Shown piece by piece: positions 23,276 to 60,349 of a stretch of 64,000 nt of DNA (within the stretch, counting starts at the first letter, position 1; every line of letters starts with the position of its first letter). A program made the position numbers and the translations under genes. The notes under the pieces are model-generated. The model made no database searches. It saw nothing but the letters and a program-made list of their open reading frames with translations, and was not told the origin of the DNA. The DNA is taken from the NCBI GenBank assembly GCA_965217895.1, contig CBDCJV010000002.1, positions 1,248,001 through 1,312,000 on the forward strand, written 5' to 3'. The stretch is from Waterburya sp. (GTDB lineage Bacteria > Cyanobacteriota > Cyanobacteriia > Cyanobacteriales > Xenococcaceae).

Positions 23276-23656
23276 TTACTTAACAGTAACTTTTGCGCCA
23301 GCTTCTTCCAATTTCTTCTTGGTTTCTTCTGCATCCTCTTTAGGAACACCTTCTTTTAAGGCTTTGGGTGTAGATTCTACCATTTCTTTGGCTTCTTTTA
23401 GACCCAAGCCAGTGATGGTACGAACCACTTTGAGAATGGCAATTTTCTTGTCTTTGGGTACATCTTCTAAGATTACGTCAAATTCAGTTTTCTCTTCTTC
23501 AGCCTCAGCAGCAGCAGCAGGAGCAGCCATAGCTACACCAGCAGAAGCAGCAGCACTTACGCCGAAAGTTTCTTCAATTTGGGAAACCAGTTCAGAAGCC
23601 TCTAAAAGACTTAGAGTTTTCAACTTTTCGAGAATTTCATCAGTTGCAGTAGACAT
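23276..23656 (-). CDS. rplL: 50S ribosomal protein L7/L12
   Basis: [10 protein letters not shown] and GLGLKEAK. Confidence 0.98.
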
Positions 23657-23713
23657 AAATTTACTCCGTATTTTAGATAGTGATTAATTACGTAAATAAT
23701 TGGCGAAAAACGT

Positions 23714-24238
23714 TTATTCTTCTTTCTCGGAAACAGCCTTGATAGCTCTTGCCAGTCCACTGGGAACTTCTTTAACACCTACAGCAAGTTTGGTTGCCAA
23801 AGCGTTAATTGAGCCAGCAATTTGAGCATATAGCTCATCTTTGGTAGGCAAGTCACCTAATGCTTCAACCTGCTCTTTACTTAAAGCCTGACCTTCCATT
23901 ACGCCACCGCGCAATTCAGTCTTCTTGGTATCCTTCTGGAATCCCTTATAAGCTTTAACGGCTGCGCCTATCTCTTCTCCAGTAAAAAGAAATGCCGTGG
24001 CATCGTTAAGCAATTCAGCCATTGGCTGCCAGTTTTCATCACCATCAATGGCGATGTTCATTAGGGTGTTTTTGGTAATCTTACAGCTAGCACCGCTAGG
24101 GCGTAGACGATTACGCAGATCGGTAATTTCTGCTACCGATAATCCTTCATAGTTAATTACAAATCCTAGCTGTGCCTCACTCAAGGCTTCTTTAAGATCG
24201 GCTACTATTTCTTTTTTGTTGGCGAGGGTTCTCCCCAT
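23714..24238 (-). CDS. rplJ: 50S ribosomal protein L10
   Basis: MGRTLANK, KNTL and LPTKDEL. Confidence 0.98.
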   Translation of the reverse strand: MGRTLANKKEIVADLKEALSEAQLGFVINYEGLSVAEITDLRNRLRPSGASCKITKNTLMNIAIDGDENWQPMAELLNDATAFLFTGEEIGAAVKAYKGFQKDTKKTELRGGVMEGQALSKEQVEALGDLPTKDELYAQIAGSINALATKLAVGVKEVPSGLARAIKAVSEKEE

Positions 24239-24294
24239 CTTCTATCACCTCCTTTTTGATTGTTATCTTTTGGGTCAAAGTTACACCGTCATAA

Positions 24295-24432
24295 AACGAA
24301 AAAACCTCCAGCTTCTTGCCAGAGGTTGCCCAGTCATTTATCTCAATTTCTAATCAGAGAAATTGCTCGATAAGACTGATGGACATTGACCTCGGCAGGA
24401 AATTAAGCAGACGCGCCTGCTGTCTTTGGTGT
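24295..24432 (-). promoter_or_regulatory. L10 leader (autogenous ribosomal protein leader)
   Basis: AAGACAGCAGG...TTAA.TTCCTGCCGAGG upstream of rplJ, followed by hairpin AACCTCTGGC..GCTGGAGGTT-TTTT. Confidence 0.8.
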
Positions 24433-24482
24433 TAGTCGTCTAATCTTGGATGTTTATTTGTGGTGTTTGTCAAAAATTTCGT

Positions 24483-25202
24483 TTAGGCTGCCTCAGTCAA
24501 ACTTAAATCTCGTAAAGCACTCGCATCAACCTGAATTGATGGACCCATGGAAGCGGAAATATAGACAGTACGCCAGTAACGACCCTTTGCTCCCGAAGGG
24601 CGATTGCGGTCAACGGTTTCCTGTAGAGCTTTTAAATTAGCTAGCAAATCTTCCGCCGAAAAAGATGCCTTACCAAACATAACATGAACGATACCACTTT
24701 TGTCAGCCCGAAACTCTAATTTACCAGCTTTGAATGCCTGAACGGCTGGTTCTAAATCGGCGGTAACAGTTCCTCCTTTAGGAGATGGCATTAGACCTTT
24801 TGGCCCTAAAACACGACCTAATTTAGCTACCTTGGGCATCATATCAGGAGTCGCAATTAGAATATCAAAATCCATCATGCCTTTGGAGATGTCTTCGATT
24901 AGCTCTTCTGAACCATAGATTTCCGCTCCAGCATCTTGGGCTTCTTTGACCTTTTCGCCGCGAGCAATTACTGCAACTCTAACGGTTTGTCCTGTACCTT
25001 TAGGTAAACTGACGGTGGTTCTAAGCTGTTGGTCAGTGTACTTGGGATCGATACCCAGCTTCAGGTGAGCTTCTGCTGTCTCATCAAATTTAGCTGTAGC
25101 AGTCTCTTTAAGCAAGTTTAAGGCTTCTAGAGGCTCGTATGCTTTATCTTCGTCAACTTTTTTAATTAGCTCTCGCATTCGGCGAGACATTTTCTTGGTC
25201 AT
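24483..25202 (-). CDS. rplA: 50S ribosomal protein L1
   Basis: [11 protein letters not shown] and EFRADK. Confidence 0.98.
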
Positions 25203-25312
25203 GGTTGAATCTCTCCTTGGGTAATTAGCGAAGTGGTTTGCTTCTCCCCGTAAAATTTGTAAGTAATAAGTTTTTGACTGTGGAAAATATGCTTAATCAG
25301 CGATGCCTACGG

Positions 25313-25741
25313 CTAAGCTTCGCTAATCGCCACACCCATATTTTTTGCTGTTCCCGCCACAATTTTCATTGCTGCTTCGATATCATTGGCATTGAGATCG
25401 GGCATTTTGGTTTGAGCAATTTCTTTAAGCTGATCTTTGCTGATCGTTGCCACTTTTTGCTTATTTGGCTCGTTTGCTCCTTTTTCTATGCCTGCTGCCT
25501 TTTTAATTAGAACAGATGCAGGAGGAGTTTTGAGGATAAAAGTAAAGCTTCGATCTTCAAATACAGAGATTTCTACAGGAATTACTAGTCCTACTTTCTC
25601 TGCTGTTTTGGCATTGTATTCTTTACAGAATGCCATGATATTGACACCGTGTTGACCCAAAGCAGGACCAACTGGAGGTGCAGGGTTAGCTTTACCCGCA
25701 GGCAAAGCTAATTTAATTAACGCTACAACTTTTCTAGGCAT
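25313..25741 (-). CDS. rplK: 50S ribosomal protein L11
   Basis: [18 protein letters not shown]. Confidence 0.98.
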
Positions 25742-25744
25742 TTT

Positions 25745-26383
25745 TTAGTTTTGTTTCTCGACTTGATTAAACTCCAATTCTACTGGAGTATCTCGCCCAA
25801 AAATAGATAGTAAGGCTTTTAGCTTACTTCTTTCTGGGCTAACTTCAATTACCTCCCCTTCAAACTCTTTAAATGGACCAGAAAGGACGGCAATCTTATC
25901 GCCAATTTCCATGTCAATTTTCATGACAGGCTCTTGTTCTTCAGCTTGCTTAAAGATGCGCTCTACTTCAGCGCGGGATAAAGGAAGTGGCTTAACATGA
26001 CCCCTACCTCTACCATAACGACGCTTTTGTTCTGCACCTACAAAGTTAATCACATTCGGGGTGTTTTTGACTATCTGCCAGGCATCATCATCCATCAGCA
26101 TTTTCACCAGAACATATCCAGGGAAAACTTTTTCGTCGCTGGTATAGCGTGAACCGTCTTTACGGATTTTGACGCTGGGGGTTTGGGGAATCTGCACCTG
26201 CATAACGCGATCGCCTATGTCTAGGGTTTGAATCCGCATTTCCATATCAGTTTTAACACGCTTTTCACATCCTGAAGCTACCTGTATAGCGTACCAGCGA
26301 GGACTACCTTTGGCTTTTAGATTAACCTGCACCTCCTCTGTCTGCTGATTATCATCTTCTGGTATGTCTGCGGCATTAGTCAT
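25745..26383 (-). CDS. nusG: Transcription elongation factor NusG
   Basis: WYAIQVASG, FPGYVL, KOW domain and IFGRDTPVEL; ATG at 26383 lies just after the secE stop. Confidence 0.97.
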   Translation of the reverse strand: MTNAADIPEDDNQQTEEVQVNLKAKGSPRWYAIQVASGCEKRVKTDMEMRIQTLDIGDRVMQVQIPQTPSVKIRKDGSRYTSDEKVFPGYVLVKMLMDDDAWQIVKNTPNVINFVGAEQKRRYGRGRGHVKPLPLSRAEVERIFKQAEEQEPVMKIDMEIGDKIAVLSGPFKEFEGEVIEVSPERSKLKALLSIFGRDTPVELEFNQVEKQN

Positions 26384-26385
26384 AA

Positions 26386-26622
26386 TTAAAATACTTTTCC
26401 TGCTCCCCAAGTAAAAAATTTATCAATTAGATAAATTATTGTGGACACTAAAATAACCATCAGAATTACGGCTGCTGACTCACTGATTAACTGTTGACGA
26501 GAAGGCCAAACAACTTTTCCCAATTCTTCTTTGGTTTGAATGGCAAATTCGGCAACACCACCGCCACTTGCTGCTTCTTTAGCTGCTGGCGTTTCTTTTT
26601 TTACTATATCTTTTTTGGTCAA
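26386..26622 (-). CDS. secE: Preprotein translocase SecE
   Basis: EELGKVVWPSRQQL plus TM. Confidence 0.95.
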   Translation of the reverse strand: MTKKDIVKKETPAAKEAASGGGVAEFAIQTKEELGKVVWPSRQQLISESAAVILMVILVSTIIYLIDKFFTWGAGKVF

Positions 26623-26885
26623 AACTGTTACCTCGCGAGGGTATTCGCTGAAAATAATTTATATGCTACTATCTTTAAAATATTAGCTTCAAAGTAAAAT
26701 AGTACTGCTGACTATCCAATCACTGCTTGATAACTTCATTTTTTACTCACCAGAAATTTGCCGATAGCTATTATATTATTAAGCTTAATCAATTATTGAG
26801 TAAATAGCTTGTGGGGATTAATAAGTTTTTGAACCTTTCTGACGCTTGTTTTTAAGCTTCTTCTTAGCAACCAACTTGGGAAATA

Positions 26886-26958
26886 CGCGCCTTGGAGGAC
26901 TTGAACCCCCGACATCCGGTTTTGGAGACCGACGTTCTACCAACTGAACTAAAGACGC
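26886..26958 (-). tRNA. trnW: tRNA-Trp(CCA)
   Basis: GCGTCTTTAGTTCAGTTGGTAGAACGTCGGTCTCCAAAACCGGATGTCGGGGGTTCAAGTCCTCCAAGGCGCG folds as a cloverleaf with anticodon CCA; 3' CCA not encoded. Confidence 0.97.
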
Positions 26959-27061
26959 ATCTATTTAACTGACTTTGACCAACGGTCAATCGTTTCCAAT
27001 TATATCCCATTGGTGCATTTTTCAATTAAAAAAGTAGGTCTTAAATATTTGCGAGAAAACT

Positions 27062-27424
27062 TCAGATAGGGCGATCAAAACGCTGTTTGATTCTAGTAGC
27101 TTTACCGACGCGATCGCGCAAATAATATAGCTTAGCGCGACGAACCTTACCGCGACGCTCTACTTTTATCTTAGAGATCATAGGCGAGTGTAAGAGAAAT
27201 ATTCTTTCTACCCCTACTCCTTGAAACACTTTACGCACGGTAATAGTTTCGTTAATACCGCCATTCTGCATGGCGATTACGGTGCCTTTATAAGGCTGTA
27301 CCCGCTCTTTGTTTCCTTCTGTAATTCTGACACCTACTTCTACAGTGTCACCAACATAGATATTAGGCAAATCTGATTTAAGATGTTCGGCTTCTATTGA
27401 ACGTATTATGGCTTCAGCATTCAT
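27062..27424 (-). CDS. rplS: 50S ribosomal protein L19
   Basis: GVGVER and [14 protein letters not shown]. Confidence 0.98.
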
Positions 27425-27574: not shown

Positions 27575-29035
27575 CTAAACTTGATTCCCAATTGGTAGAG
27601 AAACGGTGAACTTGGTTTTTCCAGGAAGTGTAGCTTTGTCTGATAAAACATTTACTGTGATACTACCTTCATGATGTTCAATGATTTGTTTGGCAATTGT
27701 TAATCCTAAGCCGGTGTTGTCACCAGAAGATTTGGTAGTGAAAAAAGGATCGCACATTTTTTGCACTACTTCTGGCTCTATGCCTTCTCCTGTATCGATG
27801 ATATCCACCGTAAGATTGTCTTGTTGCTGGTAGAGATTAATAGTTAATATCCCCTGTGAACCTATAGCGTCCAGGGCATTTTGAATTAGATGAAACCAAA
27901 GCTTTTGTAATTCTTCTGGGTAGCAATAGACAGCAGGAACATTGCCGTAATTCCTCATGATTTGAATACCTTTAGGCATCTGTTTTGCAAGCAAGCTTAA
28001 AGCAATTTCGATCGTGTTTTTAAGATGAGCCTGGCGTTTTTGAATATTGTTTTTTTGACTATTGGCATAGTTATCAAGAGCTTCGATAATCTTGGTGAAT
28101 TTATCAGTTGAATCAGCAATGTGTTCTACACTTTCATGCAAATTATTAATTAGGTAAGCATTTTCTAAAATTGCTAAATAGTCTTTGCCTGTTAATAGGG
28201 GTAAAAACTCTTCTATTTCTTCATCAGAACCCAAGTTAAAGAGAATATTGGCAGTTTTTTCGGCTGCTGCGATTTTAAATTTTTCCAGTTTGGCAATAAT
28301 TTTAGCTTTTAGCTCTTGTTTTTCTGCCGTTGACAACAACAAGTTAACGTTTCTACTTCTAGCTTGTTTTAATAATGCTATGAAATATTTTTGTTGCTCA
28401 GGTGAGAGCTGCTGCAAGAAAATAGGCAAATCTTTTAGGCTAGATTCTTTAAATTGATTTAACTCTGCTAAAGAGCTTTTAATTTCTGACAGAGGATTAT
28501 TAACCTGTTGGCTAATACCCGCAGTTATTTTTTCTAAGGTCAAATATTTATTTGATTTAATTATTTGCTTTTGGTTTTTTTTAAGCTGATTTACTGCTCT
28601 ACTTAGCTGCTCATTTCTAGCTTGTAACTGATGTTTTAGATTGACTAAAGAAAGCTGATTTTTGACTCTAATTAAAACCTCGTGCATCTGGAATGGTTTT
28701 TGAATATAGTCAGCACCACCGATGGCAAAAGCTTTGACTTTATCTACCGATTCATTAATAGCACTGATAAAGATTACGGGAATATGTTTAGTTCTAGGAT
28801 TACTTTTTAACTGTTTACATACCTGATAACCATCTAAATCTGGCATCATAATATCTAATAATATTAAGTCTGGAGGATTTATTTCTGCTGCTGAAAGTGC
28901 AAGTTTGCCATTAGGAACAGGTCTAACCTTATATTCATATTTAGTTAAAATATCTACTAACAAATGCAGATTTTGGGGAGTATCATCCACCACCAAAATA
29001 TTATTTAATTCCTGTGCCACCATTAAACTTCTCAT
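27575..29035 (-). CDS. Receiver-histidine-kinase-like protein with degenerate H-box
   Basis: Intact REC (VVDD, LLDIMMP, KPF); H-box reads AGISQQVNNPL; HATPase DTGEGI, PFFTTK and NTGLGL. Confidence 0.88.
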   Translation of the reverse strand: MRSLMVAQELNNILVVDDTPQNLHLLVDILTKYEYKVRPVPNGKLALSAAEINPPDLILLDIMMPDLDGYQVCKQLKSNPRTKHIPVIFISAINESVDKVKAFAIGGADYIQKPFQMHEVLIRVKNQLSLVNLKHQLQARNEQLSRAVNQLKKNQKQIIKSNKYLTLEKITAGISQQVNNPLSEIKSSLAELNQFKESSLKDLPIFLQQLSPEQQKYFIALLKQARSRNVNLLLSTAEKQELKAKIIAKLEKFKIAAAEKTANILFNLGSDEEIEEFLPLLTGKDYLAILENAYLINNLHESVEHIADSTDKFTKIIEALDNYANSQKNNIQKRQAHLKNTIEIALSLLAKQMPKGIQIMRNYGNVPAVYCYPEELQKLWFHLIQNALDAIGSQGILTINLYQQQDNLTVDIIDTGEGIEPEVVQKMCDPFFTTKSSGDNTGLGLTIAKQIIEHHEGSITVNVLSDKATLPGKTKFTVSLPIGNQV

Positions 29036-29057
29036 TACTTTCTTCCCTTTTATAAAA

Positions 29058-31907
29058 CTAGTTTTGGAGTAATAAATTTAAAATATGTTCGTATTCAAAA
29101 TTGTCAATATGTTGATTTATTGTCTGTGCTAGCAACTGATTTTCATAAGCAATTTTCTCAATAGTTTGATTGATTTTTTCTAAATCTATTGCCATGATTG
29201 ATTGCTGAAGCTCTAAAATCAATTCAGCCGATAAAGTATCAAAAGAATCTGAATTAAGTTGCGATAAGCCTAGCGGCATTGCTTCGCTATGCAATTCTTT
29301 TGTTGTCATACTATCTGTCTCCGCATAGGTATAACACACACCTAAATGCTTCGTCATCATTGCCAAAAGTTCCTCGGCTTGAAATGGCTTGCGCATAAAG
29401 TCATCACAGCCCGTATCCATAATCACTGCTTTTTCTGACTGCATTGCACTAGCAGTAAGGGCAATAATTTTGGTTTTAGACAACTTGTCTGTCTTGATCC
29501 TGCGTACAGCTTCATAACCATTCATGTTAGGCATCCTAATATCCATAAAGATTAAGTCTGGCTGCCATTCTTGCGCCCAAGCGATCGCTTGTTCTCCGTC
29601 CGCTGCTTTTTTGACAGCAAAACCCAAAGGCTTAATTAACTCTACTAGCAACTCACGATTATCAGATTTATCATCCACTACTAAGATGCGGTATTGAGGT
29701 TGATTTGCCTCTAAACCAATAACTTTTCTTTGAGGCTGTTTGGCGGGTATTTGTTCTGAGGTGCTTATCTGCACTAACACCTCAAATTTAAAGACGCTGC
29801 ATACATTTTCTATTGAGCGAACCTGAATCTCTCCTCCTAAAAGCTGAACAAATTTACGGCTAATAGCTAAACCTAATCCCGTTCCTTCCTTAGCTTCTCT
29901 TCCAGACTGAGTTTGAACAAACGGTTCAAATAATGAATCAATTTCTGTTGCTGCAATACCCTTACCCGTATCTTCTACGGTAAAAACAAGCTTGATATCT
30001 GTATTGGGTTCAAGCTGATTAGCATTATCCGTAATCGGCATAACTCTCAGCACCACGCTACCTTGGCTGGTAAACTTGAGCGCGTTATTGAGTAAATTAA
30101 TCAGAATCTGGCGTAATTTGCCTTGATCTGTCTTAATGTATGGCGGTGTCTGTTCAGCAACTTCAAAATTAAGCTGTAAACCCTTATTGCGAGCTTTGAG
30201 AGCAAACATTTGCTTTAAATCGTTCAAAAACTCGTAGAGATCGAAGTTAGTTTGTTCGAGGGTGAAACGTTCTGCCTCTATTTTAGATAAATCTAAAACA
30301 TTGTTAATCAGTCCTAATAAATGCTCTCCACTACGGCTAATAATTTCTAAATGCTTTTGTTCTGCTTTGGGTAAAGCCTGATTGCGATTTATAAGTTGAG
30401 CAAAGCCCAAGATGGCATTCAAGGGTGTTCTGAGTTCATGACTCATGTTGGCTATGAAGGCACTTTTAGCTTGATTAGCTACTTCCGCTTTTTCTTTGGC
30501 AGTAGATAACTCGGCGGTGCGTTGTTCGACTTTCTGTTCTAAATCGGCATTGAATTGTTTTAACTCTAAGGTTGAGGCTTCTAAACTATCAATTACGTGA
30601 TTGTAATGCTTCGCTACGTGACCAATTTCGGTAAAGGGTTCTACAGGGACTCGTAAACTCAAATCTTGGTTAGCCGCTTGCAAATTCATCACCTGCAACA
30701 TTTGGTAAACAGTGCTTTGGGCATAGTGTTCTGAGATATTTAGTCCTCTCTCCTCGTCTATAGCTGAGACTCGTAAGGGTGTAAAGCGATTAATAATCTT
30801 TAATAAAATCCAAGTTATGGCAAATGCCCAAACACCACATATTGCTATACCCAGCAGCTGAATCAAAAGTTGATTTAAGCGATCGCCCGCAGGTAAAAGT
30901 TCTAAGTTGCCAAATAAAGCAACAGAGAGAGTTCCCCAAATACCTCCACCTAAATGAACGGGAATTCTATCGATCGCATCATCTATTTGCCAGTACTGTA
31001 GTAGATAACTACACCAAATACAGATAATTCCGCCAATAAAGCCAATAATAATGGCGATTTGGGGGTTAACTATATTGCAAGCAGCAGAAATTGACACTAA
31101 ACCCGCTAGAGAACCATTAATTAAAAATTCGACTTTAATGGTTTTTAATCTTTGCCAACTAATAAATCCCGCACCAAACATTCCTGATGCACTAGCTAGC
31201 ATCGTATTGAGAATGATTAAAGCAACTTTGCTAGTTAAAGCCAGAACGCTACCACCATTGAAACCCAGCCATCCTAGCCAAATCAACATCGCTCCTAAAA
31301 CAGAAAAAGGTAGATTTGAACCATGAATTTGAACCGCTTTACCTGATGATGTAAAACGCCCTGTTCTTGCACCGATAATTAAAACCACTGCCAGAGAAAC
31401 CCAACCACCTACGCTGTGAACCACCGTTGAACCTGCAAAGTCAACAAAACCTATCCGTGCTAAAAAACCAGTTACATTATCTGTATGCAGACCATTCCAC
31501 GCCCAGTGACAAAAAATAGGATAGATTAACCCTGAAACCAGAACGGTAATAATTACATAGGCTCTAAATCTTAAACGTTCTGCGGTAGCACCAGCAACAA
31601 TAGTAGCGCAGGTGCTACAAAACATCATCTGGAAAATAAAATAGACAATCTCTCTAGCAGAGAAAGATTCTGGGTTAAAAAAGAAATTATTTGTACCAAT
31701 TAACCCCATGGCTGAAATGCCAAATGCCAAGGCATAACCAAATGCCCAGAAAAGTATAATGGAGATGCCTAAATCGATCAGATTTTTGATGGCTACGTTG
31801 ATACTATTTTTGGTTCTGGTAAGCCCAGACTCTAAGCACATATAGCCTGGCTGCATTAGTAAAACCAGAAACGTGCAAAATAGCAACCATAAGTAGTTAG
31901 AATTCAT
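29058..31907 (-). CDS. Ammonium transporter (Amt)-HAMP-like-HisKA-HATPase-REC fusion
   Basis: Amt motifs [36 protein letters not shown] and IDD...VH; then [11 protein letters not shown] boxes and REC DIRMP. Confidence 0.95.
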
Positions 31908-32166
31908 GGGTATTTAAAGCTAGTAGGGATGATAATATTAATCCTCGATTCAATTATTCCCTCTTTTTTGGGAATTGGCACTAGTGTCGCTGCGCTTAAG
32001 TAATAGGTAGTGGGTAGTGGGTAAGCTATCGATGCACTTAAATTGCACATTATTTTTATTTAATTAGGAAATAAACCATTAAACCCTCTCCCTATTTCCC
32101 TATCTTCCTCAACAGGTAAACTAAATGCTTAACAGCTTATTATTAGGTAGCAGGTAGTTGGTATAA

Positions 32167-33324
32167 ATGACTTTAATTTTTTTGGTTTCTTTATCTTTGG
32201 TAATCTGGCTATTTTTATTATTGTTTTGGGGTGGGTTTTGGTTATCTAATCAACGTCTTGAAGATAGTGATTACAAATTAGAAAAATATCCCACTGTCTG
32301 GGCAATTGTTCCTGCTAGAGATGAGGCAGAGGTATTGCCTATAAGTTTGCCTTCCTTGTTAAATCAAAATTATGAAGGTGAATTTAAAGTAGTTTTAGTT
32401 GATGACAATAGTTGCGATCGCACTTCTGATGTATCCCAGGAAACTGCCGCTAAACTTAATAAAACAGAGAAATTAAAAGTAGTTAAAGGTAAACCTCTAA
32501 ATAAAAGCTGGAAAGGTAAATTATGGGCAATGGAGCAGGGAATTAGCTCTGCTCAACCAGCTCCTGACTATTTTTTGTTTACTGATGCAGACATTAAACA
32601 CGATCTTAATAATTTGAGCCAGTTGATTTATAAAGCAGAAACCGAAGATTTAGACTTGGTTTCTTTAATGGTCTTGTTGCGCTGCAAAAGTTTTTGGGAA
32701 AAGTTATTGATTCCTGCTTTCGTCTTTTTCTTCCAGAAGCTTTATCCTTTTGCCTGGGTTAATAATCCTCATAAATCCATGGCTGCTGCTGCGGGAGGCT
32801 GTATCTTGATTAGCAATCAAGCTTTATTGGACATTGGCGGTATTACAGCTATTAAAGATGCTCTGATCGATGATTGTGCTTTGGCAACGGCAGTTAAGTC
32901 TCAAGACAAAAATATTTGGCTAGGGTTAAGCAAAACAACTACTAGCCTGCGCCAGTATGATAATTTAAAAGTAATTTGGGATACTATTGCCCGCACCGCC
33001 TTCGATCAGCTGCACTATTCTTTCTTGTTATTAGTTGGCACAGTTATCGCCATGAATATTATTTATTTAGCTGCACCTATATGTTTGGTTATAGGAATAA
33101 TAACTACTAACTGGCTATTAACAGGAATGGCATTATTCACTTGGTTATTGATGGCTTGTGCTTATATACCGACCCTAAAACTATATAACTTATCGCTTCT
33201 TTGGGCATTTAGTCTTAGTGCGATCGCTTTTTTATACGTTTTGATGACTATGGACTCGGCGATCAAATACTATCAAGGCAAAGGCGGTAGCTGGAAAGGA
33301 AGGACTTATACTAAATCCTGTTGA
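32167..33324 (+). CDS. hpnB: Hopene-associated glycosyltransferase (GT2), HpnB-like
   Basis: PARDEA, WKGKLWA, TDADI, AAAGGC, LIDDC and GGSWKGR. Confidence 0.85.
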   Translation: MTLIFLVSLSLVIWLFLLLFWGGFWLSNQRLEDSDYKLEKYPTVWAIVPARDEAEVLPISLPSLLNQNYEGEFKVVLVDDNSCDRTSDVSQETAAKLNKTEKLKVVKGKPLNKSWKGKLWAMEQGISSAQPAPDYFLFTDADIKHDLNNLSQLIYKAETEDLDLVSLMVLLRCKSFWEKLLIPAFVFFFQKLYPFAWVNNPHKSMAAAAGGCILISNQALLDIGGITAIKDALIDDCALATAVKSQDKNIWLGLSKTTTSLRQYDNLKVIWDTIARTAFDQLHYSFLLLVGTVIAMNIIYLAAPICLVIGIITTNWLLTGMALFTWLLMACAYIPTLKLYNLSLLWAFSLSAIAFLYVLMTMDSAIKYYQGKGGSWKGRTYTKSC

Positions 33325-37812: not shown

Positions 37813-38385
37813 TTATCGTCTTTTGGGATAAAGCCATTTTGAAAACAACCTAGTCATTCTGGGCATAGCTACATAGGTCATTAACAATACGAGTATGGCG
37901 GTAGAAATTAGACTTCGTAGCAATAAAGGTAAAGAAAATGATGCCAATAAAGGTACAAGGGTTAGATTTGCCAGTTGGATCAAGGGAAAAAGAGCAAGTA
38001 AAGTTACCGTTGCCATTTTGTAGCGTGGCGGGGGAATGATTCTTCTGGGAGAAGGTAAGGTAAACCAAGTCTCTAAGCCTGTAATCATCCTAATTCTGGC
38101 TGGTTCTAGGCGCAAACTTTCTGCACGAGCTAACCACTGATGGCGACATTCTGATTCCTGCCAAATCTGCAAATTACTGGCGCGATCAAATTTAAAAATA
38201 ATTTGATATTCGTTATTTTCAGGACTACCTGGACGAAAAACATTAGCACCTAAATGCCCTTCAAAAGTCATAGCCGACGCGGTAATACCAGAGATAAATT
38301 TCTCAAATGCTTCTTCACATCCTGGTTTAACTTGTCGTGAGATAACAACGGTGACTGGCGGATCGACTGAGTGATGGTGACTCAT
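37813..38385 (-). CDS. ABM-domain membrane protein
   Basis: VKPGCEEAFE, GHLG, TGLETWF, PPRYKMA and two TMs. Confidence 0.85.
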   Translation of the reverse strand: MSHHHSVDPPVTVVISRQVKPGCEEAFEKFISGITASAMTFEGHLGANVFRPGSPENNEYQIIFKFDRASNLQIWQESECRHQWLARAESLRLEPARIRMITGLETWFTLPSPRRIIPPPRYKMATVTLLALFPLIQLANLTLVPLLASFSLPLLLRSLISTAILVLLMTYVAMPRMTRLFSKWLYPKRR

Positions 38386-38475
38386 TCCCTTGTTTTTAAA
38401 CTTTTAGATTAGCTGAAATCGGAGTCGAAACCTTAGTTTTATGACCAATGATTAATTAGTAAATTAAGTAAATTA

Positions 38476-38517
38476 GTAGCTGAGGATACATCTTTATTGA
38501 TTTTAACTGTATACAGT
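38476..38517 (+). promoter_or_regulatory. NtcA-activated promoter
   Basis: GTA-GCTGAGGA-TAC (38476-38489), 22 nt, then TACAGT (TAN3T, 38512-38517). Confidence 0.85.
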
Positions 38518-38563
38518 ATGCAATATTAAGCAAATAATTATTAATGACTAGGTTTTTAGCTTT

Positions 38564-39556
38564 ATGCTAGTCACAAAAGAAGAAATATTCAAAAGGTTTT
38601 GGTATCCTGTGATGCCAACCTCACAAATGTCAGAGCAACCTCAAGGATTTGAGTTATTAGGTCAAAAAATTGTCTTGTGGTTAGATGATTTAGGTCAACC
38701 AGCAGTGGCAAGCGATCGCTGTTGTCATCGTTCGGCACAACTATCAAAGGGCAAAGTTATCGACGGCAATATTGTCTGTCCATATCATGGCTGGCGGTTT
38801 GACGGATCGGGAGTCTGCGTCAAAGTCCCTCAGCTAGAAGACAGTAGCCAGATACCTAAAACATATCAAATAAATACCTATCTGGCTCAAGAACGTTACG
38901 GATATGTGTGGGTATGCCTGGGTGAACCTTTGAAGGGAATTCCTGAAATAGCCGAAGCCAACGATCCCAGTTTTCGTTTGATTCCCGAATTTTATGAAAC
39001 TTGGCACTGTGCCGGCTTGAGAGTGATGGAAAACGAATTCGATCTAGCTCATCCTACCTTTGTCCACACTACGACTTTTGGTAGTGAAGCTCATCCTATT
39101 CCTGATGCAATAGAAGTGAAGGAAACTGAATACGGCATTACTGGTACAGCTACTTTGGGAGTAGTTAACCCCGAACAGCAGCAGAAAAATCTCAAAATGG
39201 ATGAAGGAATAACTACCAGAGTTTTAGATTTAGACTGGTATTTACCTTTTACCTGCAAGCTGAGGATCAATTATCCCAACGGCTTAGTCCATATCATAGT
39301 TAATACCACGACACCAATTAACGATTCATCTTCGCAGATAGTGCAGTTTTGTTTGCGAAATGATACCGAAGCTGACACGAAAGCAGAAGACGTGGTGGCA
39401 TTCGATCGCGCAGTAACCTTAGAAGACAAAGCTGTATTAGAGACTACTGATTATGATGTGCCTCTGGATATAAAACTAGAACAACACATGATGACAGATA
39501 AGCCAGGAATTTTGATACGGCGAAAGTTGAGCAAGCTTTTGGCAAGTAATAAGTAA
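38564..39556 (+). CDS. Rieske non-haem iron oxygenase alpha subunit (HpxD-like candidate)
   Basis: CCH...CPYHGW Rieske motif, ENEFDLAHPTFVH Fe site and ED; purine context. Confidence 0.88.
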   Translation: MLVTKEEIFKRFWYPVMPTSQMSEQPQGFELLGQKIVLWLDDLGQPAVASDRCCHRSAQLSKGKVIDGNIVCPYHGWRFDGSGVCVKVPQLEDSSQIPKTYQINTYLAQERYGYVWVCLGEPLKGIPEIAEANDPSFRLIPEFYETWHCAGLRVMENEFDLAHPTFVHTTTFGSEAHPIPDAIEVKETEYGITGTATLGVVNPEQQQKNLKMDEGITTRVLDLDWYLPFTCKLRINYPNGLVHIIVNTTTPINDSSSQIVQFCLRNDTEADTKAEDVVAFDRAVTLEDKAVLETTDYDVPLDIKLEQHMMTDKPGILIRRKLSKLLASNK

Positions 39557-39612
39557 AAGATAGGGGTAGAACGGTCGTTCGCCCTTAACAACTAATAACT
39601 AATAACTAAATT

Positions 39613-41013
39613 ATGGTACAACCAACAAATCAAGAACTAACTTTAGAAGAAGATATTGCCAGAGAAACACCTGCTTCGATTGAATCCGACTTAATTTATG
39701 GCTTAGAAGCTCGTCCGCCGTTTGTCGAATCAATATTTGTGGCATTACAGCACGTATTTGCCTGTTTTGTTGGTATTATTACCCCTGGGCTGATTATCTG
39801 CGGGGCGTTAGAAGTGCCTCCTGCCGATACTACTTTTATTCTTAGTATGTCTTTAGTAGTCTCAGGTATTGCCACTTTTATTCAAGCTAAAAGGTTTGGA
39901 CCAGTGGGTTCTGGTTTATTAAGCATACAAGGAACAAGCTTTGCATTTTTGGCACCAATTATTGCTGCTGGTTTGGCAGTAAAAGGGACTGGAGGTTCTG
40001 CCACAGATGCACTAGGTTTGATTTTTGGACTGTGTTTTTTTGGAGCTTTAATTGAAATTATTATTAGTCGTTTTCTACACTTGGCGAATCAAGTAATTAC
40101 ACCGTTAGTTACTGGGGTAGTAGTTACTTTGATTGGTTTGACCTTAATCAAAGTTGGTATCACTTCTATGGGTGGAGGAGTGGCAGCCCAAAAAGACGGT
40201 ACTTTTGGCAGTTGGACTTATTTAGGCGTTTCTCTGTTGGTGTTGGCAGTAATTGTTATTCTCAATAGTCTTAGCAGTAACTTTTTACGGATGTCATCAG
40301 TAGTTATTGGTTTGGCTGTAGGTTACTTAGTTTCGATTCCTTTAGGATTAGTCGATTTTAGTAATTTGTCCCAATTGCCCCCAATTGCCTTGCCGATACC
40401 GTTTAGATATGGCTTGAAATTTGATTTTGGGGCGTTTATTCCCTTTGCTTTTTTATATGTAATTACTTCCATTGAATCAATTGGCGATTTAACTGCCACC
40501 TCAGCCATTTCTGGCGAACCAATTGATGGTCCAATATATTTTCGTCGTCTTCAAGGCGGGATTTTGGGAGATGGAATCAATTCAATGATTGCTGCTTCTT
40601 TAAATACTTTTCCCAACACTACCTTTAGTCAAAACAACGGCGTAATTCAGCTTACAGGAGTAGGCAGTCGCTATGTAGGTTACTTTATTTCGGTAATCTT
40701 TGTTATTCTCGGTCTTTTTCCCATCATCGCGGGAATTTTTCAGGCTTTACCTCAACCAGTTTTAGGTGGCGCGACAATTATTATGTTTGGAACTGTGGCA
40801 GTAGCAGGAATTAAAATTCTGTCGATGGTCAATTTAACCAAACGTAATTCAATTATTTTGGCAGTTGCTTTCAGCATGGGTTTGGGAGTAACTTTTGTTC
40901 CTGAAATTCTCGACGCTTCACCCGATCTAATTAAAAGTGTTTTTTCTTCAGGTATTTCTACGGGAGGTCTTACCGCTTTAATTCTCAATATGCTTCTGCC
41001 AGGTAGAGAATAA
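39613..41013 (+). CDS. NCS2 xanthine/uracil permease
   Basis: LQH, GTSF, ESIGD and TTFSQNNGVIQLTG NAT signature. Confidence 0.93.
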   Translation: MVQPTNQELTLEEDIARETPASIESDLIYGLEARPPFVESIFVALQHVFACFVGIITPGLIICGALEVPPADTTFILSMSLVVSGIATFIQAKRFGPVGSGLLSIQGTSFAFLAPIIAAGLAVKGTGGSATDALGLIFGLCFFGALIEIIISRFLHLANQVITPLVTGVVVTLIGLTLIKVGITSMGGGVAAQKDGTFGSWTYLGVSLLVLAVIVILNSLSSNFLRMSSVVIGLAVGYLVSIPLGLVDFSNLSQLPPIALPIPFRYGLKFDFGAFIPFAFLYVITSIESIGDLTATSAISGEPIDGPIYFRRLQGGILGDGINSMIAASLNTFPNTTFSQNNGVIQLTGVGSRYVGYFISVIFVILGLFPIIAGIFQALPQPVLGGATIIMFGTVAVAGIKILSMVNLTKRNSIILAVAFSMGLGVTFVPEILDASPDLIKSVFSSGISTGGLTALILNMLLPGRE

Positions 41014-41124
41014 TTTTGAGGGATTTTTTACTATTTTTTTTTGATTTGTAATCTTTTTTCTTAAAGCTAATAGCTGATAGCTAATAGCTTAAAACCAATA
41101 ACTGACTACTGTTAGCGAAAAATT

Positions 41125-42288
41125 ATGTATAACTTAAAAGCAATTGTGATTGGCGCGGGTATGGCTGGATTAGGAGCGGGTATTGCTTTGCGCCAGGCGG
41201 GATACGAGGTGGAAATCTATGAGAAGACTAGAAAGCTTCGTCCTGCGGGGGCAGGTATTTCTCTATGGTCAAATGGAATTAAGGTTCTGAATAAATTAGG
41301 ATTGGGCAAGGAAGTTGCTGCCATTGGCGGACAGATGAACCGCATGGAGTACCGTAATCTTCAAGGAGAGGTTTTAAACGATGTCAACTTGATTCCTTTA
41401 ATGGAACAGGTAGGACAAAGACCTTATCCTGTATCCCGAACAGATCTACAGCAGATGATGCTGAACGCCTTTGGTGAATCAGACGTAAACATGGGAATGC
41501 GCTGTGTGGAAGTTAAACAAGATGTAGATAGTGCCACAGCTATTTTTGAAGATGGTACTACTACCACAGGGGATGTAGTTATTGGTGCAGATGGGATTCA
41601 CTCAGTAGTGCGTAGTTATCTTGCTGGTGGCAAAATAGAATCTCGCTATGCGGGCTATGTTAACTGGAATGGTATAGTCGAAGCTAGTCCCGATTTGGCA
41701 GAAAATGATGTTTGGGTAATTTATGTCGGGGAAGGAAAGCGCGCCTCGATGATGCCTATAGGGGGCGGACGTTTTTACTATTTTATGGGCTGTCCCAAAC
41801 CTAAAGGAACAAAAGTTGCACCCCAAGATATTCGCGCTGAACTAAAAGAAACCTTTACAGGTTGGGCGCAACCAGTCCAAAACCTGATTGAAAAACTCGA
41901 TCCCGAACAGGTTAACCGCCTGGAAATTAGCGATATCGATCCTCTTCCTAGTTTGGTTGAAGGTAGAATTGCCCTAGTAGGAGATTCTGCCCATGCTACT
42001 ACTCCAACTTTGGGGCAGGGAGGCTGTCAGGCGATGGAGGATGCAGAAGTTTTATGTCGTTATTTGATAACAACTAACATTAGCGTCGAAGATGCCCTTA
42101 AGCGTTACGAGGCAGAACGCAAAGAAAGGGTAGCGCAGCTAGTATTAAAAGCCCGTAAGCGTACTGATACTATCTATAATAAAGAACCAGATTTGACCAA
42201 GCAATGGTACGAGCAGTTAAAACAAGAACAAGCCGAGGATGTTACAGGTGCGATCGCCAAAATAATTCTTGGTGGACCATTGCATTAA
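41125..42288 (+). CDS. hpxO: FAD-dependent urate hydroxylase
   Basis: GAGMAG, ISLWSNG, RYAGYVNWNG, GEGKRASMMP and GDSAH..TP.LGQGGC. Confidence 0.88.
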   Translation: MYNLKAIVIGAGMAGLGAGIALRQAGYEVEIYEKTRKLRPAGAGISLWSNGIKVLNKLGLGKEVAAIGGQMNRMEYRNLQGEVLNDVNLIPLMEQVGQRPYPVSRTDLQQMMLNAFGESDVNMGMRCVEVKQDVDSATAIFEDGTTTTGDVVIGADGIHSVVRSYLAGGKIESRYAGYVNWNGIVEASPDLAENDVWVIYVGEGKRASMMPIGGGRFYYFMGCPKPKGTKVAPQDIRAELKETFTGWAQPVQNLIEKLDPEQVNRLEISDIDPLPSLVEGRIALVGDSAHATTPTLGQGGCQAMEDAEVLCRYLITTNISVEDALKRYEAERKERVAQLVLKARKRTDTIYNKEPDLTKQWYEQLKQEQAEDVTGAIAKIILGGPLH

Positions 42289-44926: not shown

Positions 44927-47900
44927 TCATTTGTCTTGTAATATCAAGCGCATTTTTTCTGCTAATGTTTGAACATTAGGTTCTTGAAGTATTCCTAGAT
45001 GATTACCTGGGACATCAATGATATTTAATCCTCCTTTGGCAAAGTCTTGCCACTCTAGCTTGAGATCCCTATCTTCTGCTGCTCGAAATAATACTGCAGA
45101 ACCTGGATAGGGCTGCATGGTATAGCCTTGATTTACTTTTTGATGCTCTTTTGTCTGTTGAATATATTCAGTCAGAGCAAAATTGCGACTGGTTTTGTCA
45201 ACAAAATTTTCGCGCACCCAATCAATTTTGTATAAGCCGTACCTAATATGATCTGCGGTTGAGTTTATCCGCCATTTTATCCTGTCTAAAATATAGCTTG
45301 CACCTATGGTGCGTATTTTGTTAGCGTGACGATAAATACGAGTTTTTAACGGAAGATTTTGATGAGCCGAGTCGCTGTTAAGACAATGAGAGTCTAACAG
45401 ACCTAAAAACCTGACTTCATGCCCTTGAGATACAAGATGTTGAGCAATTTCAAAAGCAACAACACCACCAAAGGATACGCCCATTAAATAATAAGGACCT
45501 TGAGGCTGAACTTTCTGCATATTATCAGCATAATAGGGTGCTAAATTAGCAATATCTCTAAAATGAGGTTTGTCAGGTTCATCGCTAAAAGATGATGATA
45601 AACCATAAATAGTGATATCTGCATCTAGGTATTTAGCCATAGGACGATAAAACTCTAAGCCATAACCCAAATTATGAATAGCAAATAAAGTTGGCTGAGA
45701 ATTGCCTTGTTTAATTGGCACTAGGCATTTTGGATCTGCATTAGAAACTGGTTCTGGTTGACGAATAATATTCGCTAAAGCTTCAGGAGTTGATGCTTGG
45801 AACATCATAGATATAGGAATCTTCTGTTCATATCTCTGTTCTATTTCCGTGACTAGACGCGCTGCCAGTAAAGAGTTACCGCCTAATTCAATAAAATTGT
45901 CTTCAATACTGATTGATTCAATACCTAAAATTTCTTCTAGCATCTCGATTATTTCTGATTCTAGGCGATCGCGAGGGGCAATAGTTGCCTCAGATAATTT
46001 TCCTACATTAAGCTCAGATAAAGCACGACGATCTACTTTTCCGCTGGTAGTCAAAGGAAAACTATCAACGATGATAAAAGTTCCAGGAATCATGTAGCTT
46101 GGCAACTTTTGCTGTAGATAGTTCCGCAGCATTTCTTCTGTTGGTGGGTTAATTTTGCTGGGTACAATATAAGCAGCTAAGGTTTCTCCTAGTTTATTTT
46201 CGCGCACTACTACCGCAGCTTCTACTACTAATTCAGATTGGGATAGTACTGCTTCAATTTCTCCTAATTCAATGCGTAATCCTTGAATGTTAACTTGACG
46301 ATCTACCCGACCTAAAAACTGTAGCGTACCGTCAGACAAATAACGTCCCAAATCTCCCGTTTTATATAAACGTTCCCCTTTTACATAAGGATTATCGACA
46401 AATTTTTCTGCCGTTAATTCGGGTCGATTAAGATAGCCCATAGCAACTCCATCTCCACTAATGTGAATTTCTGCTGCTACTCCAATCTGGACTGGCTGTA
46501 AATCTTCATCTAATAAATACACTCTCATGTTGGGAATTGGACTACCTACAGGCAGCGACTTAAAATGATGATCTATTTGCTCAGGAATTTTATATAAGGT
46601 TACAACCCCAGTCCCTTCTGTCTGACCATAGATATTAGCTAATTGAACATCGGGTTTAAAAGTCTCCCGCCAGCACTGATATATTTCTGGAGTTACCTGT
46701 TCTCCTCCTGCTGCTACAAGACGTACCTGATTATCTAATAAGTTCTGACGATAATCTCGATCTTGCTGATTGAGAATGCCCCAAAAATTCCGCCAGAAAG
46801 AGGGAACATGATCGACAATAGTTACACCGTGACGCTTAATTATTTCAAAAAATTCGAGGGGGTTTCTTGTTTCTTCGGTTGTAACAATCAATGCAGTCGC
46901 TCCCTGTGCCAAAGGCATTAATAACTGTCTAGCTGAAACTATCAAAGCAATTGAACCACGATGGAGATAAGTATCTGCCGAGGTTACATCTAAAGCTAAC
47001 TGCATTGATTGGGCATAATGACTCAAGTTGCCGTGACTCAGCATTACCCCTTTGGGTTTGCCTGTCGAACCAGAAGTGTAGACAATATGCGCCAAATCCG
47101 AAAGATTTACTTTTTGCTCTAAATTGTCTGGGGGCTGCTGAGTAATCGAATGCCAATCTGTATCTATACAAATAGTCTGCTCAATTTCGGTAGGAATTTT
47201 CTTTAGTAAGCTTGCTTGAGTCAGTAATGTTTTGATCTCGGCATCTTCTAAGATAAAGGCTATTCGGGCAGGAGGATTATTAATATCTAAGGGAACATAA
47301 GCTGCCCCTGCTTTGAGAATGGCTAATACAGCAACTACCATAGATAGAGAACGTTCTATACATAACCCAACCAAAGAACCTTTACTAACTCCCAAAGATT
47401 GCAGATAATGAGCTAGCTGATTGGCTTGAGTATTTAATTCGCTATAGGTTAACTGTTGTCCTTGGCAAATTATGGCTACTACACCAGGGCGGTTCTGAAC
47501 TTGAGCCTCAAACAACTTATGAATACACTCTGGTAGAGACTGTGTTTGCGTCTGATTCCATTCATCTAAAACCTGTTTTGTTTCAGTAGCTGATAGTAAA
47601 GTTAGAGAATCAACTGAACTATAAGAATTATGAGCAATTGACTTGAGTAATACCTCATAGTTATCACAGATACGCCGAATAGTTGATTCATCAAACAAAC
47701 GACGATTGTATTCAAACCTACAGAGCAAATGATTTGGTTTTTCAATAATGTCCAAAAGTAATTCTTGCTCTGGTATTGCCTTGGTTAATTTAGTTTCTGG
47801 GGTTCTAAATACGCTGTTAAATCTAAACAACATCTGAAATAAAGAAGACACAGAAAATTCTGATAAGTCTTGATTTAACGCTGAAGCTATGGCTGCTGTG

Positions 47901-48367
47901 CTTGTGTTTGAATAGTTACTCCCTTCTGTAACTTGAGTCTGAATAATTTTTAGTAATGCGCTGAACTGTTGTTTGGCTGCAATTGTTACTCGAATTGGCA
48001 ATATTTCCAGCTTTGCTGTAGAGTCTTCTAGATTCGAGTTAGGATATCCAACTAAAACGTCCGATTGATTTGTATAGCGGTAGAGTAAAACTTGGAAAGC
48101 GGCCAGCAAAACAATTGGCAAAGAAACATTTTCTTGTTGAGCAATTTTTGTTAAGTCTCGATTTAATCCTTGGTCAACCGTTAACAAATTTTGCCCGATA
48201 GCACTTGGTCGAAGATTAATTTGAGCTTCTGGGCTAGACGATACTGACCTTACTCTGTCTGTCGGAAAATCTAGTATAGGAGCAATGTTTTTAAGTTGCT
48301 TGCGCCAATAGTCAATGTCTGAGGATCGTTCGTTGGCGGAAAAACTTTTTTGGTACTTCATGAGCAA
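44927..48367 (-). CDS. Stand-alone NRPS-like protein (partial C-A-PCP-TE)
   Basis: YWRKQL..FPTD and FQVLLYRY partial C; YTSGSTGKPKG, YGQTE, YKTGD and GKVDR A domain; LGGNSL PCP; GVSFGG..PGNH TE. Confidence 0.93.
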   Translation of the reverse strand: MLMKYQKSFSANERSSDIDYWRKQLKNIAPILDFPTDRVRSVSSSPEAQINLRPSAIGQNLLTVDQGLNRDLTKIAQQENVSLPIVLLAAFQVLLYRYTNQSDVLVGYPNSNLEDSTAKLEILPIRVTIAAKQQFSALLKIIQTQVTEGSNYSNTSTAAIASALNQDLSEFSVSSLFQMLFRFNSVFRTPETKLTKAIPEQELLLDIIEKPNHLLCRFEYNRRLFDESTIRRICDNYEVLLKSIAHNSYSSVDSLTLLSATETKQVLDEWNQTQTQSLPECIHKLFEAQVQNRPGVVAIICQGQQLTYSELNTQANQLAHYLQSLGVSKGSLVGLCIERSLSMVVAVLAILKAGAAYVPLDINNPPARIAFILEDAEIKTLLTQASLLKKIPTEIEQTICIDTDWHSITQQPPDNLEQKVNLSDLAHIVYTSGSTGKPKGVMLSHGNLSHYAQSMQLALDVTSADTYLHRGSIALIVSARQLLMPLAQGATALIVTTEETRNPLEFFEIIKRHGVTIVDHVPSFWRNFWGILNQQDRDYRQNLLDNQVRLVAAGGEQVTPEIYQCWRETFKPDVQLANIYGQTEGTGVVTLYKIPEQIDHHFKSLPVGSPIPNMRVYLLDEDLQPVQIGVAAEIHISGDGVAMGYLNRPELTAEKFVDNPYVKGERLYKTGDLGRYLSDGTLQFLGRVDRQVNIQGLRIELGEIEAVLSQSELVVEAAVVVRENKLGETLAAYIVPSKINPPTEEMLRNYLQQKLPSYMIPGTFIIVDSFPLTTSGKVDRRALSELNVGKLSEATIAPRDRLESEIIEMLEEILGIESISIEDNFIELGGNSLLAARLVTEIEQRYEQKIPISMMFQASTPEALANIIRQPEPVSNADPKCLVPIKQGNSQPTLFAIHNLGYGLEFYRPMAKYLDADITIYGLSSSFSDEPDKPHFRDIANLAPYYADNMQKVQPQGPYYLMGVSFGGVVAFEIAQHLVSQGHEVRFLGLLDSHCLNSDSAHQNLPLKTRIYRHANKIRTIGASYILDRIKWRINSTADHIRYGLYKIDWVRENFVDKTSRNFALTEYIQQTKEHQKVNQGYTMQPYPGSAVLFRAAEDRDLKLEWQDFAKGGLNIIDVPGNHLGILQEPNVQTLAEKMRLILQDK

Positions 48368-55288: not shown

Positions 55289-55894
55289 TTATTTAGACCC
55301 TGCTTGCCATTGAAAGCCGAATTTATAGTATTTATCAGCAGGTTGATGTCCTTGAAAATATCTTTCCTCTTTAATGATGCTGACTTGTGAGCCAATATTG
55401 CTAATCATTGCAGCAGCACATAAAGGACAATTGCGATCGGGATTATTTAGTTTAATGTGAACTTGTTCACCGTTACTAATTTGGAAAGTCATCCGACCAT
55501 CAACAGACTGAAAATCTTTGGCACCTTGATAAATTAGAGCAAAGAACATTATCCGTTTGATCATTTCTGGACGATAAATAGTCATATTTTCGCCATCTTG
55601 AGCTGCACCAGTGCGATCGTCTTTATCTAAAAAGATATAGGGAGATTTATTTTTTGCTCCAAAGTTACCACCCAAAGGCTGAATCACGCCTTTTTGACCA
55701 TCAACTGTTTCATACATACAGCCTAAATCGAGATCGGGAGCATTATTTCCCATTAGCTTGGAGAAAAAACCTGCATTTTGCTGAGGTTTCTGACTCCAGT
55801 TGAGGTTAACCTTGACAGTTAGCTGTTGAGAAGCATCATTTTTGCTCAGGTTAATTTTATGGGAATCGCCTTTTTTTTCTAGAGTAATTGACAT
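55289..55894 (-). CDS. TerA-C-terminal-like / TerD-fold protein
   Basis: VNLNW, DLDLGCMYE, KGVIQPLG, DDRTG, GEN and FQWQAGSK. Confidence 0.85.
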   Translation of the reverse strand: MSITLEKKGDSHKINLSKNDASQQLTVKVNLNWSQKPQQNAGFFSKLMGNNAPDLDLGCMYETVDGQKGVIQPLGGNFGAKNKSPYIFLDKDDRTGAAQDGENMTIYRPEMIKRIMFFALIYQGAKDFQSVDGRMTFQISNGEQVHIKLNNPDRNCPLCAAAMISNIGSQVSIIKEERYFQGHQPADKYYKFGFQWQAGSK

Positions 55895-56026
55895 AATAGA
55901 TCTCTTGAGATTTTTAAATGAGTAAAGTTAATAAGATCAGAAAGAGGTAATAAGTATAGTTACCATCAAAAGTATCAGGACATGATTTTAGATGTAGGGG
56001 CGAATGGTATTCGCCCTCAAAATATT

Positions 56027-56629: not shown

Positions 56630-56642
56630 CTTTTTATTCTCC

Positions 56643-57221: not shown

Positions 57222-57305
57222 TTTTCAAAACTCCTTTGATAATTAAAAATGTTCTAGGTTTATTAGTTGTAACGAAGTAAAATCGATTGTCTTTAAAACT
57301 CAGTA

Positions 57306-57959: not shown

Positions 57960-58293
57960 GTTAGTAATCTTTGTAATTTATTTACGTTTTAATATATCTG
58001 TAGTTAATTTAGTTTGTGTGTGATCTAATCCAGATGTAAAAGGTGACAGTATCTCTTGATTATATTTTTTTGATAATTTAGATAAATATTTATAATCCAA
58101 AGAATAGTGAGATAGAACGATAGCCTTTAGATATTTATACATATATTATATTTTTATTAATATATGTATAAATACGCATAAGGTACTGCTTGGATTTATA
58201 TTTACGTGTTTTTTCGGTTAGCTTTTCTCATGTATAAAGTTAGTTTTTATTAGCCTATTTTTAATTTACAAAAGCGCAAAAGCTATTATATGT

Positions 58294-60348: not shown

Positions 60349-60349
60349 T

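Follow-up and report, generated by a model that had tools for sequence, protein, structure and literature searches.

A receptor-type Amt hybrid kinase in Waterburya and a receiver-bearing histidine pseudokinase that persists where the sensor has been lost

A 64,000-bp stretch of the Waterburya sp. genome (assembly GCA_965217895.1, contig CBDCJV010000002.1, positions 1,248,001 to 1,312,000; hereafter the window, to which coordinates refer) carries two adjoining open reading frames (ORFs) for signalling proteins on the minus strand. ORF1 (29058..31907, 949 residues) encodes a putative ammonium-receptor hybrid histidine kinase with the order Amt, HAMP-like linker, HisKA, HATPase, REC, and helical tail. 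ORF2 (27575..29035, 486 residues), located 22 bp downstream, encodes a Rec-controlled histidine pseudokinase, in which a REC domain is followed by a long helix, a His-less DHp domain with a helical insert, and HATPase. The original prediction, made from the sequence alone, gave the same outer coordinates and spacing. From their residues, the ORF1 family appears to be a receptor-type Amt, and ORF2 a pseudokinase that arose a single time out of a functional Rec-kinase. The pseudokinase has a role independent of this sensor, since ten genomes keep it intact after sensor loss, and it is likely a shared regulator rather than the sensor’s dedicated partner. The Amt-kinase receptor class has already been published (PMC5764959, PMC11152129). 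New here are a natural variant of the N1 site and the pseudokinase, which originated once and has outlasted several losses of the sensor.

The host genome comprises 5.29 Mb in two contigs and is 99.9% complete. Of the 120 ORF1 homologues listed, the top 76 (908–977 residues) have the same domain order, and orthologue counts out of 76 below refer to these; for ORF2, 120 homologues were listed. An assembly chimera, the possibility that the original prediction had named against itself, is ruled out by these homologues, at least 76 of the same architecture, and by single contigs of two other samples that span both genes. Named homologues belong to the Pleurocapsales (Chondrocystis, Waterburya, and Pleurocapsa). 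The ratio of nonsynonymous to synonymous substitution rates (dN/dS), computed per domain among five close genomes, was 0.04–0.22 across all ORF1 domains and 0.03–0.23 across ORF2.

Pfam assigned Amt to residues 6–396 of ORF1 (30720..31892, E = 5.6e-114), HisKA to residues 480–546, HATPase to residues 594–709, and REC to residues 741–851 (29355..29687), all on the minus strand. The kinase core (29781..30470) contains H490 in an intact H-box (MSHELRTPL), with His present in 18/18 aligned orthologues, and the receiver contains D789, with Asp in 17/18. The H-box His, the N, G1, and G2 boxes, and the receiver Asp, Thr, and Lys of a hybrid histidine kinase are present (H490, N607, D646, G677, D745, D789, T818, and K840). 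The fusion of Amt, H-box, HATPase, and receiver seen in the original prediction is upheld; its HAMP can be called only HAMP-like. No Pfam HAMP match was found in ORF1, nor a BLAST match to one Pfam-positive HAMP. The region between the Amt domain and the kinase (residues 397–479, 30471..30719), a HAMP-like helix-loop-helix followed by a signalling helix, aligns to the linker of Sd-Amt1 from Shewanella denitrificans (PDB 8QJ3, 8QJ4, and 8QPF; PMC11152129), which likewise joins Amt to a HAMP-like linker. ORF1 residues 6–456 align to Sd-Amt1 as a single piece that reaches through its predicted HAMP. The linker is modelled as a helix (399–413), a loop, and a second helix (427–462) with pLDDT values of 54–72, and its dN/dS is 0.04.

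The C-terminal helical tail of ORF1 (residues 880–949, 29061..29270, minus strand) has no His and belongs to no named family. Two sister hybrid kinases encoded in the host genome end in it as well. An Hpt function of the tail was rejected given the missing His and the lack of any weighty Pfam or PDB match; among named Atlas clusters, Hpt comes closest, at 0.76, which is a lead only. His-less helical tails without a named family end many cyanobacterial and proteobacterial hybrid kinases.

Among solved structures, ORF1 matches the receptors Sd-Amt1 (E = 2e-118, residues 6–456) and Ks-Amt5 of “Ca. Kuenenia stuttgartiensis” (E = 1e-89; PDB 6EU6; PMC5764959) far better than E. coli AmtB (E = 1e-38), and the ORF1 model superposes on each of the two receptors with a TM-score of 0.92, which for Sd-Amt1 refers to the Amt domain. 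Identity is 46–47% to Sd-Amt1 over the Amt domain and 40% to Ks-Amt5 over the Amt fold. Like ORF1, Ks-Amt5 combines Amt with HisKA-HATPase and has no adjoining glnK, but it lacks a HAMP, a receiver, and a described partner (PMC5764959), whereas ORF1 carries a receiver and a tail besides its HAMP-like linker and is followed by a pseudokinase gene. The output of Sd-Amt1 is GGDEF, in contrast to the hybrid kinase with receiver and tail in ORF1 (PMC11152129). Both Ks-Amt5 and Sd-Amt1 are described as binding ammonium without net transport (PMC11152129, PMC5764959).

The Amt fold of ORF1 is complete and the pore residues are intact, i.e., the twin His H164/H318, the Phe gate F96/F216, and W135/S220. 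The original prediction was right that the twin-His and F/W/S residues are kept, but they are common to ordinary transporters, and the receptor class is defined by the N1/N2 pocket and not by the pore (PMC11152129). At the six side-chain ligand positions of Sd-Amt1 (Q22, E29, N45, D48, T104, and S107), ORF1 keeps five (Q19, E26, N42, D45, and T102) and has Ala for Ser at position 105. Over the 76 orthologues, the ligands are E in 76, N in 76, S in 76, T in 75, D in 72, and Q in all 71 that are covered. The switch and exit residues K41, Y117, and N264 (K44, Y119, and N269 in Sd-Amt1) are kept as well, and E26 stands in place of the transporter Tyr. The three plain Amts of the host genome lack the Q and D ligands, and two of them are preceded by exact NtcA boxes; no GTA-N8-TAC box lies upstream of the fusion here or in any of 20 loci examined. 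The ligands in the orthologues, the absence of Q and D from the plain Amts, and the contrast in NtcA boxes are among the reasons for placing the ORF1 family among the putative receptors. They also make a strong case, on sequence grounds, that ORF1 itself acts like an ammonium receptor, although this copy fails the formal signature of the class. The proposal of an Amt-kinase ammonium sensor thus stands on the likeness to Sd-Amt1 and Ks-Amt5 and on the orthologue ligands; the residues first cited for it are not diagnostic, and one ligand has been lost in this strain.

That lost ligand is peculiar to this copy. Position 105 is Ser in all 120 listed ORF1 homologues, and codon 105 (31593..31595, minus strand) reads GCT here and TCT in 17/17 orthologous loci. 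Short-read contigs of one sample, possibly the assembly’s own source, carry the Ala codon without difference, which to that extent speaks against a sequencing error; a second strain of the same sample has the Ser codon. The original prediction had overlooked this substitution, as well as Y22 and R314. The substitution likely lowers or shifts the ammonium response in this strain. Together, Ser-107, Phe-25, and Phe-49 of Sd-Amt1 correspond to Ala, Tyr, and Leu in ORF1.

In ORF2, Pfam recognized REC (residues 13–124, 28664..28999) and HATPase (residues 373–482, 27590..27919), with HisKA matching only below threshold; all features lie on the minus strand. The PleD-like receiver keeps D17, D18, D61, S91, and K113 and has a dN/dS of 0.03, and D17, D18, D61, and K113 are retained wherever covered among the 120 listed homologues. 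The ATP-site residues N386, D414, G416, F431, G442, and G444 are found in 120/120. The H-box, however, is degenerate (residues 172–182, 28490..28522, AGISQQVNNPL), with Q176 for His and Q177 for Glu, so that SQQVNNPL stands against AHEINTPL in His-bearing relatives. Among the listed homologues, position 176 is His in six and position 177 is acidic in none, and none has a His-acid pair; the His-less helix nevertheless has a dN/dS of 0.025. Modelling suggests that the receiver continues as one helix (117–196) into the His-less DHp. The best fold match is LvrB, and the Rec-DHp-CA order with a continuous signalling helix is present.

Outside the genus, the nearest ORF2 homologues (about 40% identity) have AHE[I/V]N[T/N]PL in all 22 loci examined, and several of the His-bearing homologues directly follow other hybrid kinases. 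In the phylogenetic tree, the 30 copies from within the genus form one branch without the His-Glu pair. As the outside relatives keep the His, this branch points to a single origin of the pseudokinase. A strain-specific broken gene is ruled out by the conservation among homologues, the low dN/dS, and the orphan copies described below. HisKA-type phosphatases share a conserved E/D-x-x-T/N motif after the His position. ORF2 is unlikely to be a canonical phosphatase, having no acid at H+1 and at H+4 an N in only 52/120 homologues, with S, H, D, Y, and others elsewhere.

The distribution of the two genes was assessed in 39 genomes of the genus. The Amt kinase is present in 23, of which 20 copies are whole, two are cut by a contig end, and one, in a 75% complete genome, is frameshifted. 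The pseudokinase is present in 34. A synteny search of the kind the original prediction had proposed found the gene pair conserved within the genus; the two adjoin in 22/23 sensor genomes with a gap of 12–41 bp and are unlinked in G033. Trees of ORF1 and ORF2 over 19 genomes have 14/16 splits in common. In ten genomes the pseudokinase occurs without the sensor (a further genome, G032, could not be judged). In seven of these ten, decayed receiver or tail remnants with differing left ends lie directly upstream. In G024, an in-frame deletion has joined the initial codons of the sensor to its receiver and tail, leaving a 216-residue ORF immediately ahead of the pseudokinase (L107:6465-7115). On the pseudokinase tree, which omits four truncated or broken copies (G011, G022, G033, and G035), the orphan state requires five changes that are forced by well-supported branches, indicating at least five sensor losses. 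The orphan ORF2 copies retain all receiver and ATP motifs, and their dN/dS is 0.05–0.16 in the eight measurable cases, several of them near saturation. No sensor-type Amt was detected at E 1e-100 in G010 or in G028, the latter being 99% complete in two contigs.

The host genome contains a larger set of related components. Four sister kinases match ORF1 at 13–15 of 16 H-box helix residues, five more pairs of a hybrid kinase followed by a receiver-output gene are present (four with GGDEF or GGDEF-EAL motifs by eye), and there are about ten PleD-like receivers. We consider it somewhat more probable than the contrary that ORF1 couples ammonium binding to autophosphorylation, and that ORF2 is a phosphorylation-switched regulator or a phosphate sink in a network shared with the sister kinases. 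By analogy with Sd-Amt1 and Ks-Amt5, NH4+ would enter the Amt trimer, pass the twin His, and reach the N1/N2 pocket, the E26/K41/Y117 switch would respond, the HAMP helices of two protomers would pair, and phosphorylation of H490 would change. From gene order and the example of LvrA-LvrB, phosphate would then move to D789 and to D61 of ORF2, and D61 phosphorylation would rearrange the long helix into the dead kinase core. The likely end point would be cyclic di-GMP (c-di-GMP) signalling via the PleD-type receivers of the host and not transcription of nitrogen genes.

LvrA-LvrB of Leptospira (PDB 8VC9; PMC13269768) resembles the pair in that a hybrid kinase lies upstream of a Rec-DHp-CA protein, and in LvrB, as in ORF2, the receiver runs as one long helix into the DHp. 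LvrB is the prototype of a Rec-controlled kinase, and LvrA is the hybrid kinase that activates it (PMC13269768). LvrB autophosphorylates on H161 and passes the phosphate to LvrC (PMC13269768), in contrast to ORF2, which has no His; identity is 17%, and ORF2 has a helical insert of about 100 residues. Since ORF2 lacks a His to pass phosphate on, its output would be binding or buffering. Kinase cores without a phosphorylatable His but kept by selection are also described for DivL (PMC4211667) and PsmA (PMC12963549). These two proteins act by binding, a role that is only predicted for ORF2, and they have N-terminal PAS domains, whereas ORF2 begins with an intact receiver, its DHp is of a cyanobacterial type with an insert, and its ATP motifs are invariant.

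Several observations weigh against the shared-network reading. The strict receptor signature, QX6EX15NX2D[F/T]X54-60TX2[S/T], is failed by this copy at L46 and A105. Only 8/76 orthologues match it; in most of the others the sole mismatch is the F/T position, a non-ligand in Sd-Amt1 (PMC11152129). This copy also departs from 11/155 conserved Amt columns; in 74 other copies, near-copies excluded, the median is 2 and the maximum 10. The usual target of a hybrid kinase is its own receiver, and an Hpt is normally required (PMC9981736). In the host genome, eight Hpt matches were obtained, which by reading are CheA-like or inside OmpR-type proteins, and the ORF1 tail has no His, so the phosphate route to D61 is hypothetical. 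Moreover, no ORF2 target was found in this analysis, and the adjacency and congruent trees are explicable by vertical descent alone.

The departures in the Amt domain may instead mean that the sensor is fading or has changed its ligand in this lineage, such that the kinase still signals while the Amt pocket no longer responds as in the rest of the family, perhaps on the way to sensor loss. S105A removes an N1 ligand, the cytoplasmic part of ORF1 differs at just 4/151 conserved columns, and the sensor has been lost repeatedly in the genus. Y22, C100, I312, and R/K314 are shared with the closest relatives, and of these, Y22 and R314 stand at otherwise conserved positions. Against this, the frame is open, none of the kinase motifs has been lost, E26, N42, D45, T102, and both twin-His residues persist, the dN/dS of the Amt domain is 0.08, and three other orthologues reach 9–10 departures. 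We regard a fading or altered sensor as unlikely.

The usual account of nitrogen sensing in cyanobacteria relies on intracellular components, namely 2-oxoglutarate, PII, and NtcA. The original prediction was of a membrane relay working in parallel to NtcA/PII, with the His-less gene as the sensor’s partner. The close spacing of the pair, its congruent trees, and the missing NtcA box would fit a dedicated two-protein ammonium phosphorelay for nitrogen metabolism. As predicted, no glnK/glnB gene or GTA-N8-TAC box adjoins the pair; the host genome has five PII-family matches, none near the locus. Across the window the NtcA pattern occurs 17 times against 11 expected, never upstream of ORF1. A dedicated partnership is contradicted by the ten genomes in which ORF2 remains intact and under purifying selection without the sensor, G010 and G028 among them. 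Nothing ties the pair to nitrogen genes either. None is conserved beside it in orthologous loci; the conserved neighbour is the divergent hpnB (32167..33324, plus strand), a hopene-associated glycosyltransferase found beside the sensor in 16/17 orthologous loci. Elsewhere the outputs are GGDEF, adenylate cyclase, AAA_35, or PP2C. The same sensor in other cyanobacteria is fused to adenylate cyclase or AAA_35, or has a PP2C phosphatase in place of the kinase, and an Amt kinase of the same layout from another family is followed by REC-GGDEF in 4/4 scanned partners. What survives of the original prediction is thus the receptor kinase and the conserved pair; its diagnostic residues, the dedicated partnership, and the link to nitrogen control carry less weight than it gave them, and we hold a dedicated nitrogen relay to be improbable.

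It is more doubtful still that ORF1 acts as a transceptor and transports ammonium inward besides sensing it: its pore residues are all intact and some cluster-2 Amts transport (PMC11152129), but N264 corresponds to the exit-narrowing Asn-269 of Sd-Amt1 and is Asn in 74/76 orthologues, both characterized receptors bind without net transport (see above), and three plain Amts are available in the genome. We give least credit to ORF2 as a heterodimer subunit that either supplies a His-bearing kinase with its ATP domain or inhibits that kinase, which might be the unpaired third kinase arm of a trimeric sensor (a trimer-dimer mismatch is described for Sd-Amt1; PMC11152129). Its ATP motifs are invariant, its His-less helix is strongly constrained, and two His-bearing kinases of its subfamily occur in the host genome, but the cores of the two proteins fall into different subfamilies (HELRTP vs HEINTP plus a long insert), ORF2 persists after sensor loss, and G418 is Ser in 66/120 listed homologues.

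Upstream of ORF1, a conserved element (AAAARGGRAATAATT ... AATCTTATCA; 31920..31985, minus strand) is a candidate promoter. Among sensor-less genomes, BLAST and pattern searches recover it in four (G036, G021, G007, and G024) and alignment alone in a fifth (G028); it may be retained in them for the divergent hpnB. Promoter and terminator scans were at chance level (16 vs 15.2 and 3 vs 3.7, respectively).

Related sensors were seen in other settings. In G186, an Amt kinase precedes a His-bearing Rec-kinase, with a REC-PAS-adenylate cyclase two genes on. This layout was rejected as a direct ancestor, since a quick tree places its Amt in a different family, and represents a parallel layout only. 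Many genomes of the genus carry a paralogous Amt-HAMP-kinase-REC-AAA_35 fusion of about 1340 residues (L054:7458-11471, L055:7958-11986), which sometimes co-occurs with the 950-residue type in one genome. A second sensor-clade Amt of about 560–580 residues consists of Amt, a HAMP-like linker, and a short tail without Pfam output and lies directly after a TrkA-type potassium-channel gene (L088:1535-4340, L089:1554-4365, L101:7011-9781, L104:5558-8309). In Synechocystis, sll0536 is described as a potassium channel and sll0537 as amt3, and the latter may be of this type.

Elsewhere in the window, rplL-rplJ-rplA-rplK-nusG, tRNA-Trp, and rplS (23276-27424) lie downstream of the pair, an arrangement shared only by the four closest relatives. 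A Rieske oxygenase, a nucleobase permease, and an FAD monooxygenase, identified by eye, stand in a row at 37813-42288 and suggest purine as a nitrogen source; the row is not conserved beside the sensor in relatives. An adenylate cyclase gene at 4837-7152 contains an internal near-duplicate GAF-like segment. As an output of the pair it was rejected, having no receiver and lying 20 kb away. Also by eye, three TerD-like genes, a TerC-like membrane gene, and phosphoribosyltransferase- and HAD-like genes were seen at 55289-61081, and a stand-alone nonribosomal peptide synthetase-like gene with adenylation, carrier, and thioesterase motifs at 44927-48367.

Sensor-type Amts were found in 37/401 sampled cyanobacterial genomes. 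Our literature search found no paper on them, although the picture tables in the Sd-Amt1 supplement might list some, and no description of this gene pair or of a receiver-switched histidine pseudokinase. Few histidine pseudokinases have been characterized, and those found have PAS inputs and not an intact receiver. The locus offers both a receptor with a natural single-residue variant of the N1 site and an unusual pseudokinase whose neighbour has been knocked out in nature, the sensor having been lost at least five times while the pseudokinase remained. Tentatively, and with less confidence than in the shared network itself, we suggest that ORF2 may be a genus-wide receiver-switched pseudokinase, descended from a working Rec-kinase with its ATP site kept, that would act as a hub by binding sister kinases or receivers in their phosphorylated state. 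In that case, the Amt receptor would be one exchangeable input that routes external ammonium to c-di-GMP lifestyle control in baeocyte-forming cyanobacteria, without NtcA/PII.

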